From the NCBI GenBank assembly GCA_947495975.1, contig CANMBE010000002.1, positions 89,192 through 153,191 of the forward strand: a DNA stretch of 64,000 bases, given 5' to 3'. The notes beneath the pieces are model-generated. The model saw only the letters and a program-made list of their open reading frames with translations. It made no database searches and was not told the origin of the DNA. Each line of letters starts with the position of its first letter. The first letter of the stretch is position 1. Source of the DNA: Ignavibacteria bacterium. Its GTDB lineage: Bacteria > Bacteroidota > Ignavibacteria > Kapaibacteriales > Kapaibacteriaceae. The translations under genes were made by a program, and so were the position numbers. This document shows positions 1,205 through 9,019 of the stretch, piece after piece.

Positions 1205-1236
1205 CTGTATATATTGTTTACATTTTGTATATTGTC
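1205..1236. promoter_or_regulatory. candidate operator upstream of the S24 repressor: CTGTATATATTGTTTACA (TGTA..TACA ends) followed by an imperfect direct repeat TTGTATATTGT
   Basis: Palindromic and direct-repeat structure in the 70-bp gap before the LexA-like gene. Similar in style to a CTGT-N8-ACAG SOS box but not identical. Confidence 0.2.
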
Positions 1237-1268: not shown

Positions 1269-2036
1269 ATGCAAACAAAGATTCAGCTTGGTGTACGCCA
1301 TCGCCAGATTAGAGAATCTGTGCTTCAAATGTCTGTAGCTGACTATGCAAAGCAAATGCAGGTGAAGGTTCCAACCGTGTATTCGTGGGAATCTGGGCGT
1401 ACAAGCGTCCCTCAGGACGTACTTGCCAAACTCGAGAACCGTTATGGCATTTCATCCGGCTGGTTGCTCACTGGCGCTGGATCTCCAAAGAGCATCGCAA
1501 CGGAGCCGGATTCAAACACCACCCAAGCATCCAAGAGCGCATTAGAGCGTTTAGAAGAACAAGTTCATGCTATCCGCAGTGTGATTGCAGAACTAAAAGC
1601 CCACTCGCCCCTTGTGGTAGCTCCTGCACGCTTATCAAAGGGGGCTCGCGGTACACGTATTCCCATGCTGTCACTCGGTGTAAGCGCTGGGCAACCAACA
1701 GCATCGGACGACACAATTGAACGTGAGATTGACCTTGCGGACATGCTCCTAGAGCACCCGGAGAGCACATATTTTATTCGTGTTGTAGGCGACTCAATGA
1801 CAGATGCCGGCATAAGCGATGGTGATACGCTCATCGTAGACTGTGCCGTGCAGCCCCGCTCAGGACAAATCGTTATAGCAAAGGTCTACGGAGAGCTCAC
1901 CGTGAAACGCTACATCAAGGCTGAAGGCCGCCCTGTGTTGCGTGCTGAGAACAGACGCTACAAGGACATTGCTATAACGGCCGAAATGGACTTCACAATC
2001 GTTGGCGTGGTTCGTAGCTGCATTAAAAAGTTCTGA
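1269..2036 (+). CDS. XRE-family HTH / peptidase S24 LexA-like (CI/UmuD-like) autocleaving repressor
   Basis: N-terminal Cro/C1-type HTH (VADYAKQMQVKVPTVYSWESGRTSVPQDVLAKL). C-terminal S24 fold with a GDSM serine motif (VVGDSMTDAGISDGDTLIVD) and a downstream Lys (VKRY). Confidence 0.75.
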   Translation: MQTKIQLGVRHRQIRESVLQMSVADYAKQMQVKVPTVYSWESGRTSVPQDVLAKLENRYGISSGWLLTGAGSPKSIATEPDSNTTQASKSALERLEEQVHAIRSVIAELKAHSPLVVAPARLSKGARGTRIPMLSLGVSAGQPTASDDTIEREIDLADMLLEHPESTYFIRVVGDSMTDAGISDGDTLIVDCAVQPRSGQIVIAKVYGELTVKRYIKAEGRPVLRAENRRYKDIAITAEMDFTIVGVVRSCIKKF

Positions 2037-2091
2037 ACTCAACGTTGGAATAACTTTACGATGTCAAATCATTCTACATTTTGTAGAATTG

Positions 2092-3051
2092 CAAATGATC
2101 ATCTGCATCGTTATCGAAGACGTACTTTCTCAGGCCCGCTGGGATGCTATTGTTGAGCGTGTACACGCCTACACTCCCCTGCTTGTTGTCGCTAAACATG
2201 GTAGGCTCTACTCTGGAACTGACAACCTTGACGGCTTGCGGTCACTTGTTCAAAAAATTCGCGCGCACGCCGCGCTAGCACCAGACCGTACGAGTGCGCT
2301 GCTCTGCGCATTATATGGCACATGCGGAAGGTTAGATGCCTATGCATCCGCAGAAGAGGTGCCAACCTCTGTACTATTGAATATTCCTGAACTTGATCTT
2401 CATGAGCAAGATGCAGAGCGTTTGAGTCTCTTTGGCATGCGCACAATTGGAGATCTGAGCGCGCTGCAAGAGAGACATCTACGCGTACAGTTTGGTAGTG
2501 CAGGAAGTAGACTCCATACCTTTCTCACTTCACAGAGTTCTGCACTCCCATTGTATGTGCCGCCCCCTGACATTATCAGTCGCATTCGCTTTGATGATGC
2601 ACAACGCGAACCCGGCGTACTCGTTGAAACGTTGCATTACTGCGTAAGCCAAACCGTTCAGGAGCTTGCACCACAGCTATGTTGGCGCATTGAGGTTGCC
2701 GTGCTCGATAAAGCTGACGAGCTCTGTGCACAGCGCGGACGTGTATTGCGCAACGGTGTAACAACAGTCGATGCGATACTTGTTCATGCAAGAGCGCTGT
2801 TACGTGAGTTGCTTCATCCAACACGACTGTGGTGGGGAATCCGCGTGCGCCTCGCATCACTTACTCCACCACAGGCTGCACAAACACAACTATTTGTTGA
2901 GCGTAAGACTGCTCAGGATGTTTCGAACGGTATGCTTCCACGTTATGCACAAGTGATGAAGCGAGTAGAGATCCTCAACCCGTGGTCAATCGTGCCTGAG
3001 CACTATGCACGCCTTGTGAGATATTCACAAGACCCACAAGGAAACGTATGA
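2092..3051 (+). CDS. imuB: ImuB-like Y-family DNA polymerase-like protein, catalytically inactive type, N-terminal body
   Basis: Y-family HhH/thumb signature (LLNIPELDLHEQDAERLSLFGMRTIGDLSALQERHLRVQFGSAG). The palm is shortened and lacks DinB catalytic acids. It sits between the S24 repressor and dnaE2. The start was chosen at an internal ATG to avoid overlapping the upstream gene. Confidence 0.5.
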   Translation, partial: QMIICIVIEDVLSQARWDAIVERVHAYTPLLVVAKHGRLYSGTDNLDGLRSLVQKIRAHAALAPDRTSALLCALYGTCGRLDAYASAEEVPTSVLLNIPELDLHEQDAERLSLFGMRTIGDLSALQERHLRVQFGSAGSRLHTFLTSQSSALPLYVPPPDIISRIRFDDAQREPGVLVETLHYCVSQTVQELAPQLCWRIEVAVLDKADELCAQRGRVLRNGVTTVDAILVHARALLRELLHPTRLWWGIRVRLASLTPPQAAQTQLFVERKTAQDVSNGMLPRYAQVMKRVEILNPWSIVPEHYARLVRYSQDPQGNV

Positions 3052-3284
3052 AACTGTTGCTCGAGCCAATCGATGTTGGTTGTCGCAATAACACACCATA
3101 CGTTATCTGCTGGCGAGGAGGTGCATACGATGTGGAAAGCGTGCTTGACTCTTGGAGCAGCCGAGGTCCGTGGTGGGGCAAGGACGAACTGCGAGACTAC
3201 ATCCTGCTTATGACAACATCCGGCGTGATGGAGATCTACCGTAGCAACCTACATGGTTGGATGTTATCACGAATGTTTGACTAG
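3048..3284 (+). CDS. imuB: ImuB C-terminal module (DUF4113-like, RDY..G..W.L.G.FD) encoded as a separate overlapping ORF
   Basis: WWGKDELRDYILLMTTSGVMEIYRSNLHGWMLSRMFD resembles the conserved C-terminal domain of ImuB-type proteins. It begins with an ATGA overlap on the imuB stop, in a different frame. Confidence 0.45.
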   Translation: MKLLLEPIDVGCRNNTPYVICWRGGAYDVESVLDSWSSRGPWWGKDELRDYILLMTTSGVMEIYRSNLHGWMLSRMFD

Positions 3285-3304
3285 GTACTGAGCTGAATCA
3301 TCAC

Positions 3305-6300
3305 ATGTTTGCCTCACTCCATACGCGTTCACACTTCTCCTTCCTCGATGGAGCATCGTCTCCTGAAGAATTAGCTCAGCATGCAGCACAGCTTGGCCAT
3401 CATGCTATTGCACTTACAGACAGCTATGGTGTATACTCTGCCGTGCGTCTGCAACGTGCTTGTCTCGCGCACGGCATTGCGCCGATCATGGGAACTGATA
3501 TCTCACTACATGGTGTAATGGTCTCCCTCCTTGCTAAAGATCAACGAGGATATGAAGAGCTCTGTGGTCTTATCACAAGAATGAAAGGTGATGCAGACGT
3601 TGATGCACTCAAAGCAGTTATGCAGTTACAGCAGTGTTTCACAATTGTTCATTGTAGGGCAGATGATCTAGGCAATATCCATGAACTGCTGAGCCCCCTA
3701 TCAAAAACAGGCACCTTTGTTGGCATATCACATGACGGTAGACCGTGGGCAAAACGTCGCGCCGGTAGCATCGTACAACTCGCTCAATCACACGGCATAC
3801 CAATCGTAATTGCACAGGATGTACGATATGCTACGCCTGATCAGTATGCAACACATGATCTCATGACGTGTATACGCGAAGGCATCACCATCTATGAACC
3901 ACATCCACTACGTCCAGTAAATGACAGACATTGCCTGCGTAGTGAACATGAACTGAGATCGCTCCTACCATGGCCAGAAGCATTCGATGCAGTTCATGAA
4001 ATCATACGTCAGTGTAGCTTCAATATCATACCGGAACATATCACGCCCCCTTCTGCAAAATTGAAAGCTGACGAAACGGCTATTAATGTTCTACGAGAAA
4101 CATGCTGGAAGGCATTCCCGAAGCGTTACACGAATATGCAGAAGCAAGCATCGGATTTACTAGAACACGAATTAGATGTAATCGGAGATCTAGAGCTTGC
4201 CGACTTTTTTCTTGTTGTAAAAGAAGTGACAGACGAAGCACGTCGCCGTACAATACGATGCTCAGGCCGTGGCTCGGCGGCTAATTCAATAGTAGCCTAT
4301 CTGCTTGGTATCACAGGAGTATGCCCAATCAGACATCATCTACTCTTTGAACGCTTTCTGCATAGGGGGCGAAAGGGCACCCCAGATATTGACGTAGACT
4401 TTGATAGCGACAGACGGAACGAGATTATCACATGGATGGAAAATCGCTTTGGTATTGACCGCACGGCCATGACGGCTACATTGATCATATACCGCACACG
4501 CATGGCTGTACGCGATGCTGCGAAAGCCCTTGGCTGGCCAATGGACACTGTGAACAAACTCTCTAAATGTGTACCGTCGTGGACAAGCAAAGCCATTAGT
4601 GATTACCGAGAAGATCTCTCGGCTGTATGCGGTGATGTGCCATTGCTCGACGTACTCATCCGCTCTGTGCAGCTGCTACTCAATCATCCACGTCACCTGG
4701 GTTTACACTCAGGAGGAATGATATTGTCATCACGCTCACTCAACACATGTACACCTGTTCAACGCTCTGCCAATGGTGTTGCTGTTGTGCAGTTCGACAA
4801 GGACGATGTAGAAGCAATGGGGCTAGTAAAGTTTGACGTTCTCGGCCTGCGTATGCTTGCCTGTGTAAGTGAGGCTGTAGAACTCATTGCACAACATACT
4901 GGTTGCCTCATTGATATTGACGAGCTCCCGCTAGATGACGAAGACACCTACAACCTCATTCGTAGTGGTCATACACTTGGCGTGTTTCAAATAGAATCAC
5001 AAGGACAGATGCACTTACTCGCAAAACATCAACCGGAAAACTTTGATGACTTGGTTACGGAGGTTGCTCTCTTTAGACCAGGCCCACTACAAGGTGGTAT
5101 GGTGCATCCATATATCGCACGGCGCAAAGGCATACAGCCCATAACATACATACACCCAGACCTAGAGCCAATCCTGAAAGATACGCTTGGCATTGTACTC
5201 TTTCAGGAGCAGGTATTAGAAATAGCACATCGGTTTGCAGGTATGCCTCTAGACGAAGCTGATGATTTTCGTGCATTAGTGTCCAAGAACAGGGATCGTG
5301 TTTTGATGGAGGCCATGCGAACACGATTTATTGAAGGGGCTAAGCAACGCGGTGTTGATTGCGATAGTGCAGAACAAGTCTACGAGAAGCTCTCGCACTT
5401 TGTGGGCTATGGATTTTGCAGATCACATGCTGCTGCCTTTGCGAAGATCGTCTATCAGAGCGCTTGGCTAAAGCAACATCATCCTGCTGCATATATGGCA
5501 GCCTTCATGCAACATCGCCCAGGCATGTACAATCTCATGACGCTAGAAGATGAAGCACGACGATTTGGAGTAGATATCCTTATGCCAAATTTGGAAATAT
5601 CAGGTATGCGCTACCACCTAGAAACAGTATCTGAGGGTTCATTTGCTATACGTAAGCCCCTTACCAGTGTAGCTCATATAAGCGATGATATTGCACGCCT
5701 CATCGTGTGGGAGCGCTCATGCTCGCCATTCGCAAACATAGAAGACATTGTTGTGCGACTGCCGAACGTCCCACGTGATGCACTAGAAGCACTTGCGCTA
5801 TCCGGCGCAATGGAACCATGGGAGCCAGATGCACGCCGCGCCCTATGGATTGTTGGCGTTGTAAAAAGAAGATCGTCAGGTTCTGTACCATCACTACTAT
5901 CCGTGCCTATACTGCATAAGGACGATGTGCCAATCCTACCAGAACTTCGTGCACAAGAACGTCTCGCATACGATTATATAACACATGGTGCGGCACGTGT
6001 ACATCCTATGACGCTCTATAGGCGCAGCCTCATAGACTTAGAGGTACGCTCGATCGATATCATAAAGCGACTGCCTCTAACACCTGTAGCAAGGGTTGTT
6101 ACCTCCGGTATCGTTATCCTGCGTCAAGCACCCGCTACGGCACATGGCATGTTATTCGTTACACTCGAAGATGAAACAGGCTTTGTACAGTGTATAGTAA
6201 AACCTGAAATACGAGATCTCTTCCGCAAAGAGCTCCGCAATGCGTCCCTTGTTGTAAAAGGTACACTACATGGTACAGCAAACTGGCGTGGAATCATGAT

Positions 6301-6421
6301 AGAAGAGGTTCGCATATTAACAAACGTCATCGGTGGATATCATGGTCACCTCTCGTTTGCTGGCGGTACTGACACACTTGAAATTGGTGCCATCACAAAA
6401 GAAAGGGCCAACGTTCAGTGA
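3305..6421 (+). CDS. dnaE2: error-prone DNA polymerase DnaE2 (ImuC)
   Basis: N-terminal PHP domain (FASLHTRSHFSFLDGASSPEELAQHAAQLGHHAIALTDSYGVYSAVRL). Its 1038-aa length is typical of DnaE2 and it is linked to the LexA-like/ImuB genes. Confidence 0.85.
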   Translation: MFASLHTRSHFSFLDGASSPEELAQHAAQLGHHAIALTDSYGVYSAVRLQRACLAHGIAPIMGTDISLHGVMVSLLAKDQRGYEELCGLITRMKGDADVDALKAVMQLQQCFTIVHCRADDLGNIHELLSPLSKTGTFVGISHDGRPWAKRRAGSIVQLAQSHGIPIVIAQDVRYATPDQYATHDLMTCIREGITIYEPHPLRPVNDRHCLRSEHELRSLLPWPEAFDAVHEIIRQCSFNIIPEHITPPSAKLKADETAINVLRETCWKAFPKRYTNMQKQASDLLEHELDVIGDLELADFFLVVKEVTDEARRRTIRCSGRGSAANSIVAYLLGITGVCPIRHHLLFERFLHRGRKGTPDIDVDFDSDRRNEIITWMENRFGIDRTAMTATLIIYRTRMAVRDAAKALGWPMDTVNKLSKCVPSWTSKAISDYREDLSAVCGDVPLLDVLIRSVQLLLNHPRHLGLHSGGMILSSRSLNTCTPVQRSANGVAVVQFDKDDVEAMGLVKFDVLGLRMLACVSEAVELIAQHTGCLIDIDELPLDDEDTYNLIRSGHTLGVFQIESQGQMHLLAKHQPENFDDLVTEVALFRPGPLQGGMVHPYIARRKGIQPITYIHPDLEPILKDTLGIVLFQEQVLEIAHRFAGMPLDEADDFRALVSKNRDRVLMEAMRTRFIEGAKQRGVDCDSAEQVYEKLSHFVGYGFCRSHAAAFAKIVYQSAWLKQHHPAAYMAAFMQHRPGMYNLMTLEDEARRFGVDILMPNLEISGMRYHLETVSEGSFAIRKPLTSVAHISDDIARLIVWERSCSPFANIEDIVVRLPNVPRDALEALALSGAMEPWEPDARRALWIVGVVKRRSSGSVPSLLSVPILHKDDVPILPELRAQERLAYDYITHGAARVHPMTLYRRSLIDLEVRSIDIIKRLPLTPVARVVTSGIVILRQAPATAHGMLFVTLEDETGFVQCIVKPEIRDLFRKELRNASLVVKGTLHGTANWRGIMIEEVRILTNVIGGYHGHLSFAGGTDTLEIGAITKERANVQ

Positions 6422-6721
6422 ATGTGAGTCCATAGTTTCGATCAAACGAACTATACGTAAAAAACGAAGCGAATACCAATCGCTGCGTTAACATTGGATC
6501 CTTTTTTTGCGCCACATAAAGACATGGGGCAACCTCGCCAAAGATCTCAATGCTTCTTGCAGGCATCCATTGAAGGCCAACTGGTAAATGGATTCCAAGA
6601 ATACTTAGATCTGCTAAACCGAGGTTAACGCCAGAGCACCAGAGCAAAAGCTAACACTACCAGTACCATCAAAACGCTCATGCAAACACTTTTCATCACA
6701 ACTACTTGATAAATTTGCTCC

Positions 6722-7492
6722 ATGAGATCTATTGCCCTATTGATTGAATACGAGGGAAGTACGTATTCTGGTTGGCAGCGCCAACCACATGATGCTTCTG
6801 TACAACAAGTTATTGAACAGGCAATTGCTGTCGCATTTGACGCTGATGTGTCTATCGTTGGCTCTGGGAGAACTGATGCAGGTGTTCATGCTCGTGGACA
6901 AGTAGCTCACGTTCATCTTCCACCTCATGCTAACGATATCCCTCTTTCTAAAGTCGCGATAGCATTAAACACCCGATTGCCTCCAGACATACGCGTTCGT
7001 TCAACTTCTGATGTAGATGCAATGTTCCACGCACGTTTTACAGCAAAGTCTCGAGAGTACATCTATGACATCTCAAAGCATGATTCCATATTCAGACGTG
7101 CCTTTTCATGGACTCCAGAACTGTCCTATGACCCAGTACGCCTCGCTGAAACATTGACGTTGTTTGAAGGTCAACACGACTTCACTGCAATCTCAAAAAA
7201 CAATCCCGATACAAAATCCTATGTCTGCTCTGTAGAATATTGCCGAATGAAGGAACATTCTGACCGTTTCGTCATTCGTATTCGAGCAGACCGATTCGTT
7301 TATGGCATGTGCCGCTCGATTGTGGGATCTGCAATGACCGTTGCACGAGGCAAGATTGATCTTGAAGGTGCTCGGTCGATACTGGCATCCGGGATTCGTT
7401 CCAGCCAGCTCATACTAGCCCCATCTCATGGATTGACCCTTAATCGTGTCCGCTATGCAAATGGTGTTTTTGATGACGAAACATACTTCTAA
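6722..7492 (+). CDS. truA: tRNA pseudouridine(38-40) synthase TruA
   Basis: IEYEGSTYSGWQRQP and GSGRTDAGVHARGQVAHV motifs. Confidence 0.9.
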   Translation: MRSIALLIEYEGSTYSGWQRQPHDASVQQVIEQAIAVAFDADVSIVGSGRTDAGVHARGQVAHVHLPPHANDIPLSKVAIALNTRLPPDIRVRSTSDVDAMFHARFTAKSREYIYDISKHDSIFRRAFSWTPELSYDPVRLAETLTLFEGQHDFTAISKNNPDTKSYVCSVEYCRMKEHSDRFVIRIRADRFVYGMCRSIVGSAMTVARGKIDLEGARSILASGIRSSQLILAPSHGLTLNRVRYANGVFDDETYF

Positions 7493-7675
7493 ACAATGTC
7501 TTTTTTATACTGGGTCTGCTGCTCAACGCTGCGTGCATGAAATCGTCAATCGGATTCTACAAGCACCTGAGGTAACGTAACACAGGCGATGATCATTCTA
7601 CCATTGCGCCCCCTACCGAAGCTCAGCTCAAGACGAGAGGCTACACGGATTTCAAGAGGAATCTCTAACGCACCG

Positions 7676-8524
7676 TTACGCCAGCCACGCCGGTGCTTCA
7701 TCGAGCGCTCGTGTGCAGGCGCGCCATGCCAGTCGGAAGGCATCTGCTGCATTATCGGACTCGGCAACAATTGTGCTATCGCCAATCTTTGTGATGCCAT
7801 GTTCCATAGATGCCTTATCGCACTGCTCTCTGCGGTACATCTCCACTTCAATCCGAGCATGACCCACGTCATATAAAAATGATGCACCTAGATTCGTAAC
7901 CACATGAGCCGCTGCATGAGATATTAATATCCTTGTGCGTGATGGTGTTAGACACACGCCCGCCGTGGGACCGAGTGTACGCTTTGTAGCAACAAACGCA
8001 ACACGTGAATCCCAGGCTGCTATCTCTGGGCCTAGATCACTGTTACCAACAACAAGTGCAACAGGCACGCCAAAGGAGCCCAGCACAGCAGCATTCATTT
8101 GGACTTCACCAACTGCAATGCTGTTGAGCCTCCACTCTCGAACGACACTCCCAATGTAGGTGTGTGCCAATAGTCCAGACGGAGTTCCTGACATGCTGTG
8201 ATACCCAATCATGAATGCGGCATCGAATGTGGAATCAATACCCTCAAGCTGACAAAGGGGCTTATTCGATGGCTTCCCGGAGCCAATAACAAGTTCGGCT
8301 GCTGAGTGAAGTTCTTCTAGAATGATGTTGCGCATCGGTCCATGACCATCGCCAACAACAAAGGTTGCTAAGGGGTCTGCTCGCAGCACTCCTTCAATTG
8401 CAGCGTTCACATCACCTGTAAGTAAGCGTTGGGCGGCTGCATAGCCCCTTCCCTCAGGCATCAATTGATCGTGATGTACAACTCCAGTTGCACCTTCCAT
8501 GTCGGCTGCGATAAAGATCTTCAT
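7676..8524 (-). CDS. D-aminopeptidase DppA-like, peptidase M55
   Basis: MKIFIAADMEGATGV N-terminus typical of the M55/DppA family. The start was moved to the internal ATG. Confidence 0.75.
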   Translation of the reverse strand: MKIFIAADMEGATGVVHHDQLMPEGRGYAAAQRLLTGDVNAAIEGVLRADPLATFVVGDGHGPMRNIILEELHSAAELVIGSGKPSNKPLCQLEGIDSTFDAAFMIGYHSMSGTPSGLLAHTYIGSVVREWRLNSIAVGEVQMNAAVLGSFGVPVALVVGNSDLGPEIAAWDSRVAFVATKRTLGPTAGVCLTPSRTRILISHAAAHVVTNLGASFLYDVGHARIEVEMYRREQCDKASMEHGITKIGDSTIVAESDNAADAFRLAWRACTRALDEAPAWLA

Positions 8525-8620
8525 GAATGATCCGATAGTGTAGGAACAGCGAGAATGTACATGTTGAATCTGCACAAAAGTACGCTATTGGATGTGCCAA
8601 GCATACCGTATCATGCATAT

Positions 8621-9019
8621 ATGAAAAATGGCATCGAACATGGAATTGGTACCGTGGAGATAATTGTCACACAGGGGATGATGGCAATTCTTGATGAACG
8701 CGTCATACATCCTGTGTACTCAACGTTTTGGTTGGCATACCATGCCGAGCTTGCGGCTCGTCGTGCAATCGAGCCATACTTTGATGATACAGAGAATGCA
8801 GTGGGTAGTTCAATCAGCCTCACGCATAAATCCATGGCGGGCCTCGGCGCAGAGGTTCGCATCACCGCACAAGTATCTGTTGTTACGGGGCGCCATGTAT
8901 TGTGCACCATTGAGGCACGAGCCACGAAAACGGATACTCTCTTGGCAGAAGGTATTCAGGGTCAGGTCATTTTATCATCGGCTACACTTGCTGCGAAATG
9001 TGCAAGCGCTGTGCGATAG
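8621..9019 (+). CDS. hotdog-fold thioesterase (FlK/YiiD_C-like)
   Basis: About 130 aa with a hotdog-like pattern. The start was set at the internal ATG (MKNGIEHGIG). Confidence 0.5.
   Translation: MKNGIEHGIGTVEIIVTQGMMAILDERVIHPVYSTFWLAYHAELAARRAIEPYFDDTENAVGSSISLTHKSMAGLGAEVRITAQVSVVTGRHVLCTIEARATKTDTLLAEGIQGQVILSSATLAAKCASAVR

Follow-up and report, generated by a model that had tools for sequence, protein, structure and literature searches.

The 64,000-nucleotide (nt) stretch of an Ignavibacteria bacterium examined here (contig CANMBE010000002.1, hereafter the window) contains four same-strand genes at positions 1269-6421 (+), which encode a repressor, a scaffold protein, ImuB-C and DnaE2. 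With a probability of roughly 90%, they constitute a damage-inducible mutagenesis cassette of the described lexA-imuY-imuB-C-dnaE2 type, also termed iPolY-ImuB-C-DnaE2(-RecA). The second and third genes overlap, and a sequence-only reading had taken them for the body of the mutasome protein ImuB and its C-terminal module of 78 amino acids (aa), divided by a sequencing indel, by an inactivating frameshift, or as a split gene expressed by termination-reinitiation. According to the present identification, the supposed ImuB body and the 78-aa open reading frame (ORF) are two genuine subunits that are encoded separately. The last of the three earlier explanations, a two-piece gene with coupled translation whose C-terminal module acts as a separate subunit, was essentially right; its premises that the module is normally fused and that the body is a canonical ImuB did not hold.

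Stand-Alone ImuB-C Encoded by the Small ORF

A body ORF and a 78-aa ORF joined by an ATGA overlap had been reported for this locus, the second in the +2 (= -1) frame relative to the first, and both points were confirmed directly from the sequence. The 78-aa ORF scored 26.0 bits on Pfam PF20114 (DUF6504), for which the cut-off is 24.2. The precomputed matches of this family include many C-terminal fragments of alphaproteobacterial "protein ImuB", and it also matched residues 428-481 of a canonical 503-aa Rhizobium ImuB, below threshold. When a profile (A1) built from the small ORF together with 11 of its homologues was compared with an alignment of canonical alphaproteobacterial ImuB C-termini (A3), 62 columns were aligned with an hhalign E of 2e-5 and a probability of 77%. 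Both groups have in common the pattern P..I.WRG....V......G.WW....R.Y......G....[FY]R....W.L, ending at the C-terminus. It is the same motif from which the sequence-only reading had recognized a conserved C-terminal ImuB module, and a search with hidden Markov models (HMMs), named earlier as a possible refutation, indeed found the similarity. The term DUF6504 was not found in the full texts of papers, where the domain is called ImuB-C as defined by Aravind et al. in 2013 (PMC3765255).

An AlphaFold2 model of the small protein was all-beta with seven strands and a predicted local distance difference test (pLDDT) score of 91.4. No solved structure resembling it was found in the PDB by Foldseek (best E 0.37), and a search of PDB-chain sequences with the small-ORF profile gave chance matches only, with E of at least 0.7. 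The model agrees with the description of ImuB-C as a beta-barrel without close PDB relatives (PMC12926913). The threshold match, the small beta-rich fold, and a conserved C-terminal Trp with basic residues (W71, R39, R49 and R75 are invariant in the family) are those of the DUF6504/ImuB-C superfamily.

An exhaustive HMMER search with A1 was performed against 1.84 billion cluster representatives, which gave 608 proteins at E <=1e-3. The best 150 of these 608 matches were almost all stand-alone proteins of 66-100 aa; a few longer ones (165-228 aa) carried the domain at the N-terminus, and no long protein with the domain at the C-terminus was found among the 150. Fusion to an ImuB body, which had been regarded as the normal state of this module, is thus true of canonical ImuB only. 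The 80-aa ImuB-C of Deinococcus deserti (ACO47649) matched A1 end to end with 51.5 bits, and this full-length match identifies the window as a member of the described cassette type.

Scaffold Protein Related to Inactive Y-Family Polymerases

No Pfam family, including IMS, matched the 318-aa body protein, and its NCBIfam matches were weak (E 2e-5) and directed to the C-terminal half of DinB (aa 108-275). An HMM of the body family (A2) gave 70.9 bits with a 417-aa IMS-domain protein encoded in a cassette on an Abditibacteriota plasmid, and 27-34 bits with the iPolY/ImuY proteins described from D. deserti, Dehalogenimonas and Sphaerobacter. Position 8-15 of A2 was aligned to about residue 75-85 of the target in every case. 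This offset indicates that the body lacks the first ~75 residues of the fold, comprising the first catalytic Asp and the fingers. An invariant Gly36-Arg37 was found in place of the catalytic Asp-Glu. The body was hence identified as a homologue of Y-family polymerases whose active site is disrupted and which is predicted to be catalytically dead, and its earlier designation as the ImuB body was abandoned, as it has no Pfam IMS match and no adjacent imuA and is related to the ImuY/iPolY of iPolY-ImuB-C-DnaE2 systems. It appears to retain the thumb and little finger, together with a clamp-binding-type motif and a RecA-NT-like tail.

The consensus of beta-clamp-binding motifs is Qxx[LM]F or QL[SD]LF. 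QTQLF, which directly follows the little finger, fits this consensus and was regarded as a candidate clamp-binding motif; in the 11 homologues its Q, T and F are invariant and its L nearly so. The downstream tail segment follows the pattern DVS..MLPRY..VMKRVEI.NPWSI.PE, of which R, Y, V, I and PWSI.PE are invariant. It was aligned with the C-terminal tail of Sphaerobacter iPolY (...QLKQRYGTSPIYRVVEVEPWSRIPE), in which ...YRVVEVEPWSRIPE... corresponds to ...KRVEILNPWSIVPE... of the window body. This segment resembles the N-termini of RecA by eye and is a candidate RecA-NT-like motif. The scaffold ends after the tail, where the canonical ImuB chain runs on into ImuB-C, and the gene boundary would therefore fall exactly at a domain boundary.

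Conservation of the Split and Translation of the Small ORF

The order S24 repressor, body, small ORF and dnaE2 was observed in 17 related loci, wherever the contig was long enough. These loci were from metagenome-assembled genomes (MAGs) of Kapaibacterium, Ignavibacteria and Melioribacter and from metagenomes. They were recovered by an alignment-based scan of contigs; the body used as a single-protein query against the genome contigs gave no match. The two-ORF arrangement was present in every related locus recovered, far beyond chance, and the comparison with relatives that had been suggested earlier thus showed that the split is conserved.

The gene start at 2092 assumed by the sequence-only reading was corrected, as 2092-2094 is an in-frame CAA. 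The true ATG lies at 2095 and gives 318 aa, as in nearly all homologues. A longer, TTG-started ORF (2002-3051, 349 aa) was also rejected as a real gene, since all homologues start at MI[IL] and the extension overlaps both the repressor gene and a conserved intergenic promoter block.

The junction reads gaaacgtATGAaactg, in which the ATG start (3048-3050) and the TGA stop (3049-3051) overlap by 4 nt. This ATGA was kept in 11 distinct junction sequences, including those of loci whose body is 45-48% identical and whose last residues differ (GNV, GNE or QQ before the stop). The exceptions were L004, with a 13- or 22-nt overlap, and the distant locus L020, with a 15-nt gap. The frame of the small ORF in the window is open for 48 nt upstream of its ATG. 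In L020 (3696-3716), where identity is 24% for the body and 38% for the small ORF, both genes share one frame, with one TGA and 15 nt between them, and stop-codon readthrough would yield a fused ImuB-like protein.

Lengths and substitution rates were also examined. All homologues of the small protein (n = 12, 56-99% identity) are 77-80 aa long, and all those of the body (n = 11, 47-99% identity) are 318-327 aa. Synonymous sites were saturated in most pairs, and the proteins were still 60-95% identical. The ratio of nonsynonymous to synonymous substitution rates (dN/dS), where measurable, was 0.02-0.09 for the small ORF and 0.11-0.13 for the body, representing strong purifying selection. No fused orthologue was found among the 11 body homologues, the 12 small-ORF homologues and the best 150 of the 608 profile matches. 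A sequencing indel and an inactivating frameshift, both proposed earlier, were rejected because the relatives share the two lengths, the ATGA junction in 11 sequences (down to 45% body identity) and the low dN/dS (0.02-0.13). The locus is neither an indel nor a frameshift nor a decaying gene, and shows an ordinary two-gene architecture.

How the small ORF is translated was considered separately. The two genes may be distinct and the small ORF translated by independent initiation, the ATGA being simply the commonest compact junction of bacteria. Of all same-strand overlaps in prokaryotes, the four-base ATGA is indeed the most frequent; the window has a purine-rich AAGGAAA 5-11 nt upstream of the ATG, and the junction can take the form of a 15-nt gap, as in L020, or of a longer overlap, as in L004. 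Against it, the overlap was kept in the 11 distinct junctions over deep divergence, the purine tract is not kept among relatives (GGACAACAGCA in L007 and L008), and the two proteins are expected to act 1:1 because they form one polypeptide in canonical ImuB. Independent initiation is a possible, rather unlikely mode of expression.

Programmed ribosomal frameshifting before the stop, which would give a fused ImuB-like protein of ~396 aa besides or in place of the two products, is very improbable. The 48 open nt upstream of the ATG would accommodate such a shift in the window, whereas in L005, L006 and L013 the small-ORF frame meets a stop no more than one codon ahead of the ATG, leaving no room for it. 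The sequence preceding the junction was not conserved and contained no common slippery site, no stable RNA structure was predicted (z 0.14), and the 15-nt gap of L020 also argues against it.

A recent inactivating frameshift, by which a once-fused imuB is decaying to a pseudogene, is scarcely credible. The two ORFs, in different frames, are collinear with the canonical ImuB domain order (polymerase-like part, clamp motif, RecA-NT-like tail, ImuB-C), a point in its favor. However, no intact fused orthologue was found among the homologues of either ORF or the best 150 profile matches, selection downstream is not relaxed, both ORFs are under the strong purifying selection described above, and the same junction type occurs across lineages with just 45% body identity. 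Furthermore, the small protein has a genuine N-terminus of its own, with M1 and K2 conserved. An artificial split of one gene by an indel from sequencing or assembly near 3030-3060 has nothing specific in its favor beyond the indels that metagenome assemblies do carry, and is practically dismissed by more than 10 independent assemblies of different samples and taxa with the same two ORFs and ATGA junction, and by cluster representatives at 99% identity with exactly 318 and 78 aa.

DnaE2 and Gene Order

The best NCBIfam model for the fourth gene was PRK05672, "error-prone DNA polymerase", with 866 bits, ahead of all DnaE models. This score lies below the curated cut-off of 939, and automatic annotation may therefore call the protein merely a generic Pol III alpha subunit. 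Its Pfam domains (PHP, DNA_pol3_alpha, finger, HHH_6 and OB) form the full Pol III alpha set. The gene product was thus assigned, from these models, as a predicted DnaE2-type error-prone C-family polymerase of the operon. An apparent frameshift in the dnaE2 of the Kapaibacterium MAG locus L005 (4408-4411) coincides with an NNNN scaffold gap and was set aside as an assembly artefact.

The gene immediately upstream of the body is the HTH_3/S24 repressor and not imuA, which precedes imuB in the copies from Rhizobium and Burkholderia plasmids (L023 and L024) used as canonical comparators. A tblastn search of the operon, the 64-kb window and the related loci detected no ImuA or RecA homologue.

In three relatives, an insertion of 3.4-4.3 kb separates imuB-C from dnaE2 (L013, 6265-10360; L010, 6233-9575; L012, about 5500-8960). 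The insert of L013 carries four tandem ORFs of ~310 aa without a Pfam family, and that of L010, and apparently of L012, holds a PIG-L-domain gene of 828 aa and a DUF2911/TPR gene on the opposite strand. This indicates that the link between imuB-C and dnaE2 is breakable while the ATGA junction is kept. The Abditibacteriota plasmid pIAD-21 (L022, AP024153.1, 1139-7210) carries lexA, a 78-aa hypothetical gene, a 417-aa IMS-like gene, a 111-aa DUF6504 gene (35 bits) and dnaE2. Its dnaE2 is the best plasmid match to the window DnaE2 (42.6%) and is overlapped by its ImuB-C gene by 44 nt.

Repressor and Candidate Operators

The first gene matched Pfam HTH_3 (E 1.6e-7) and Peptidase_S24 (E 5.9e-29), as well as the UmuD/LexA models of NCBIfam. 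An XRE-type HTH_3 replaces the winged helix of LexA in this protein. The residues VSAGQP (Ala140-Gly141), GDSM (Ser176) and TVKRY (Lys213) preserve the Ala-Gly cleavage site and the Ser/Lys dyad, and self-cleavage is predicted. The repressor was always the first in the operon and, with 76-88% identity among the related loci, surpassed the scaffold protein (45-70%) in conservation.

The motif ACATTTTGTA[TG]A[AT]T has exactly two exact matches in the 64 kb, one upstream of the repressor gene and the other upstream of the scaffold gene, and both copies were kept in 13 related loci. A scan for terminators and promoters remained at background level save for a site overlapping the conserved motif. 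Both may plausibly serve as operators of the HTH_3/S24 repressor. Together with the cleavage site and dyad of the repressor, these motifs at both promoters point indirectly to a possible damage-inducible, RecA-dependent expression and a possible role in induced mutagenesis. All features are located in Table 1.

Upstream of the cassette, the window encodes a 363-aa ORF (106-1197) without a significant Pfam family; its sole match is a chance-level Mltc_N (E 0.021, 15 bits versus a 22.6-bit cut-off). The cassette of L001 is likewise preceded by a gene of no known family (506 aa, no Pfam match).

Table 1. Location of the cassette genes and sequence elements in the window.
Feature	Position	Strand	Basis
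Conserved motif ACATTTTGTATATT, dyad ACA-N3-TGT; candidate operator/promoter element	1220..1233	+	Upstream of repressor gene; 13 loci
LexA-like repressor, predicted self-cleaving, 255 aa, XRE-type HTH_3 + Peptidase_S24	1269..2036	+	Pfam, NCBIfam, motifs, conservation
Sigma-70-like promoter match ATGTCA-17-TAGAAT	2061..2089	+	-10 overlapped by second motif copy
Second motif copy ACATTTTGTAGAAT	2076-2089	+	TCTACAtttTGTAGA is a perfect 6+6 palindrome; 13 loci
Predicted inactive Y-family polymerase homologue (iPolY / ImuY-like), 318 aa	2095..3051	+	Lacks ~75 N-terminal residues; Gly36-Arg37 at 2200-2205
QTQLF, beta-clamp-binding-type motif, aa 263-267	2881..2895	+	11 homologues
Helix-plus-strand tail DVSNGMLPRYAQVMKRVEIL, then NPWSIVPE; candidate RecA-NT-like motif	2917..2976	+	AlphaFold2 helix, conservation, Sphaerobacter alignment
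ATGA start/stop overlap, iPolY stop and imuB-C start	3048..3051	+	Window and 10 further distinct junction sequences
Stand-alone ImuB-C protein (Pfam DUF6504), 78 aa, all-beta	3048..3284	+	PF20114, 26.0 bits; D. deserti match; hhalign; AlphaFold2
DnaE2-type error-prone C-family DNA polymerase, 1038 aa	3305..6421	+	PRK05672; Pfam domains; conserved position

Proposed Working and Significance

On the basis of these features, the following working of the cassette was speculated. DNA damage would lead to RecA-stimulated self-cleavage of the HTH_3/S24 repressor, by which the two promoters with the ACATTTTGTA dyad would be derepressed and the imuY-like, imuB-C and dnaE2 genes co-transcribed. A ribosome ending at the scaffold UGA may re-initiate at the overlapping AUG, as the conserved ATGA suggests, and ImuB-C would then be made in step with the scaffold. 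DnaE2 would be held by ImuB-C and the scaffold thumb, the scaffold would tether the complex to the beta clamp and RecA would replace the absent ImuA, as judged from AlphaFold models in the literature, data on the ImuB of M. tuberculosis and the genetics of D. deserti. Mutagenic lesion bypass would then be performed by DnaE2.

Several observations weigh against parts of this assignment. The AlphaFold2 model of the body is of low confidence (pLDDT 63), and its tail (257-319) is disordered save for a single helix at 274-285. The sequence link between the body and canonical ImuB is weak, with an hhalign probability of 15% in the thumb region only, and the putative RecA-NT motif was assigned from the similarity of a short motif. 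The N-terminal 400 aa of DnaE2 gave 174 bits in BLAST to both D. deserti DnaE2X and Rhizobium DnaE2A. The lack of imuA refers to the 64-kb window. At the junction, the RNA fold is not significantly structured and the AGGA-like upstream purine tract is not conserved, and the overlap itself is the single feature that points to translational coupling.

The locus should be annotated not as a frameshifted imuB or a decaying mutasome, and instead as imuY-like (inactive PolY), imuB-C and dnaE2 genes under an S24 repressor. Ignavibacteria and Kapaibacterium-like bacteria are thereby added to the carriers of the ImuA-less "split ImuB" cassette, in their case with an XRE-type LexA analogue. The conserved ATGA and the shortened scaffold are small but usable clues to the subunit stoichiometry and the minimal architecture of a DnaE2 mutasome. 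We tentatively speculate, as an idea that may well prove wrong, that this Ignavibacteriota cassette is the most reduced natural DnaE2 mutasome scaffold, comprising a 318-aa dead polymerase without the fingers and first ~75 residues, a 78-aa ImuB-C coupled to this polymerase through an invariant ATGA, and an XRE-type self-cleaving repressor acting on two ACATTTTGTA operators. If this is true, the minimal parts for DnaE2 recruitment would be the thumb, the little finger, the clamp motif, the RecA-NT tail and a detached ImuB-C. The cassette would also be a clean system for asking whether stand-alone ImuB-C is the ancestral state, from which ImuB arose by fusion.

Comparison with Known Systems

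The split is a long-established, published architecture and not a local event. The arrangement has been published (PMC3765255, PMC6511836, PMC8072749, PMC12926913). Neither the conserved ATGA nor the shortened scaffold would surprise a specialist, since this architecture and a stand-alone ImuB-C linked to DnaE2 have been known from publications of 2009-2013 onward and were systematized in 2019 and 2026.

The canonical ImuA-ImuB-DnaE2 (ImuABC) system of M. tuberculosis, C. crescentus and Pseudomonas likewise combines DnaE2 with a dead Y-family scaffold that bears a clamp motif (a candidate in the window). It is under SOS regulation, as is predicted for the window cassette, and its ImuB-C shares the motif W.RG...V...G.WW....R.Y...G...[FY]R...W.L with the window. 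Canonical ImuB is, however, a single polypeptide of ~500 aa with a Pfam IMS match and imuA before it, whereas the window has two genes, no IMS match and no upstream imuA, and the two ORFs are in different frames here and in all relatives. As for regulation, the non-canonical LexA of Bacteroidetes (PMC8565304) has the same HTH_3/XRE + S24 domain architecture and, like the predicted role of the window repressor, combines dyad-spacer operators with control over error-prone polymerase genes. Its published motifs, CTAA-N5-TTAG, GGA-N5-TCC and TTAC-N5-GTAA, differ from the ACA-N3-TGT dyad within ACATTTTGTA, the candidate operator of the window.

A likeness was also found to the ImuA-less operons of Timinskas & Venclovas (2019; PMC6511836), which consist of inactive PolY, stand-alone ImuB-C and DnaE2, often with lexA. 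The survey of 2026 (PMC12926913) names this the DnaE2X-iPolY-ImuB-C-RecA system. For Kyrpidia tusciae, Sphaerobacter and Dehalogenimonas, both sources give the same composition as that of the window and no ImuA, namely an inactive Y-family polymerase with a RecA-NT-type tail (a candidate in the window), stand-alone ImuB-C and DnaE2. Similarity between the window and these "DnaE2X" representatives was low (22.5 and 12.6 bits for ImuB-C, 27-33 bits for iPolY). The arrangement is termed there "a split ImuB" and a possible ancestor of ImuA-ImuB-DnaE2, and Ignavibacteria were not found among the published examples in the searchable parts of the supplements.

The experimental basis comes from the cassette of D. 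deserti, listed as "LexA->iPolY->ImuB-C->DnaE2" in the supplement of PMC6511836. UV mutagenesis in this species depends on ImuY, DnaE2 and RecA (PMC8072749), and radiation induces the operon. This cassette shares its four genes and their order with that of the window, and imuA is missing from it as well; besides the end-to-end ImuB-C match, its ImuY matched the body profile with 34 bits. The two differ in lineage (Deinococcus versus Ignavibacteriota / Kapaibacterium-like), in the regulator, which is a canonical LexA in Deinococcus and an XRE-type HTH_3 protein in the window, and in the scaffold, which is 423 aa in D. deserti and 318 aa in the window. Particular to the window cassette are the scaffold without ~75 N-terminal residues, the XRE-type HTH of the repressor, and the ACATTTTGTA motif before both the repressor and the body genes.

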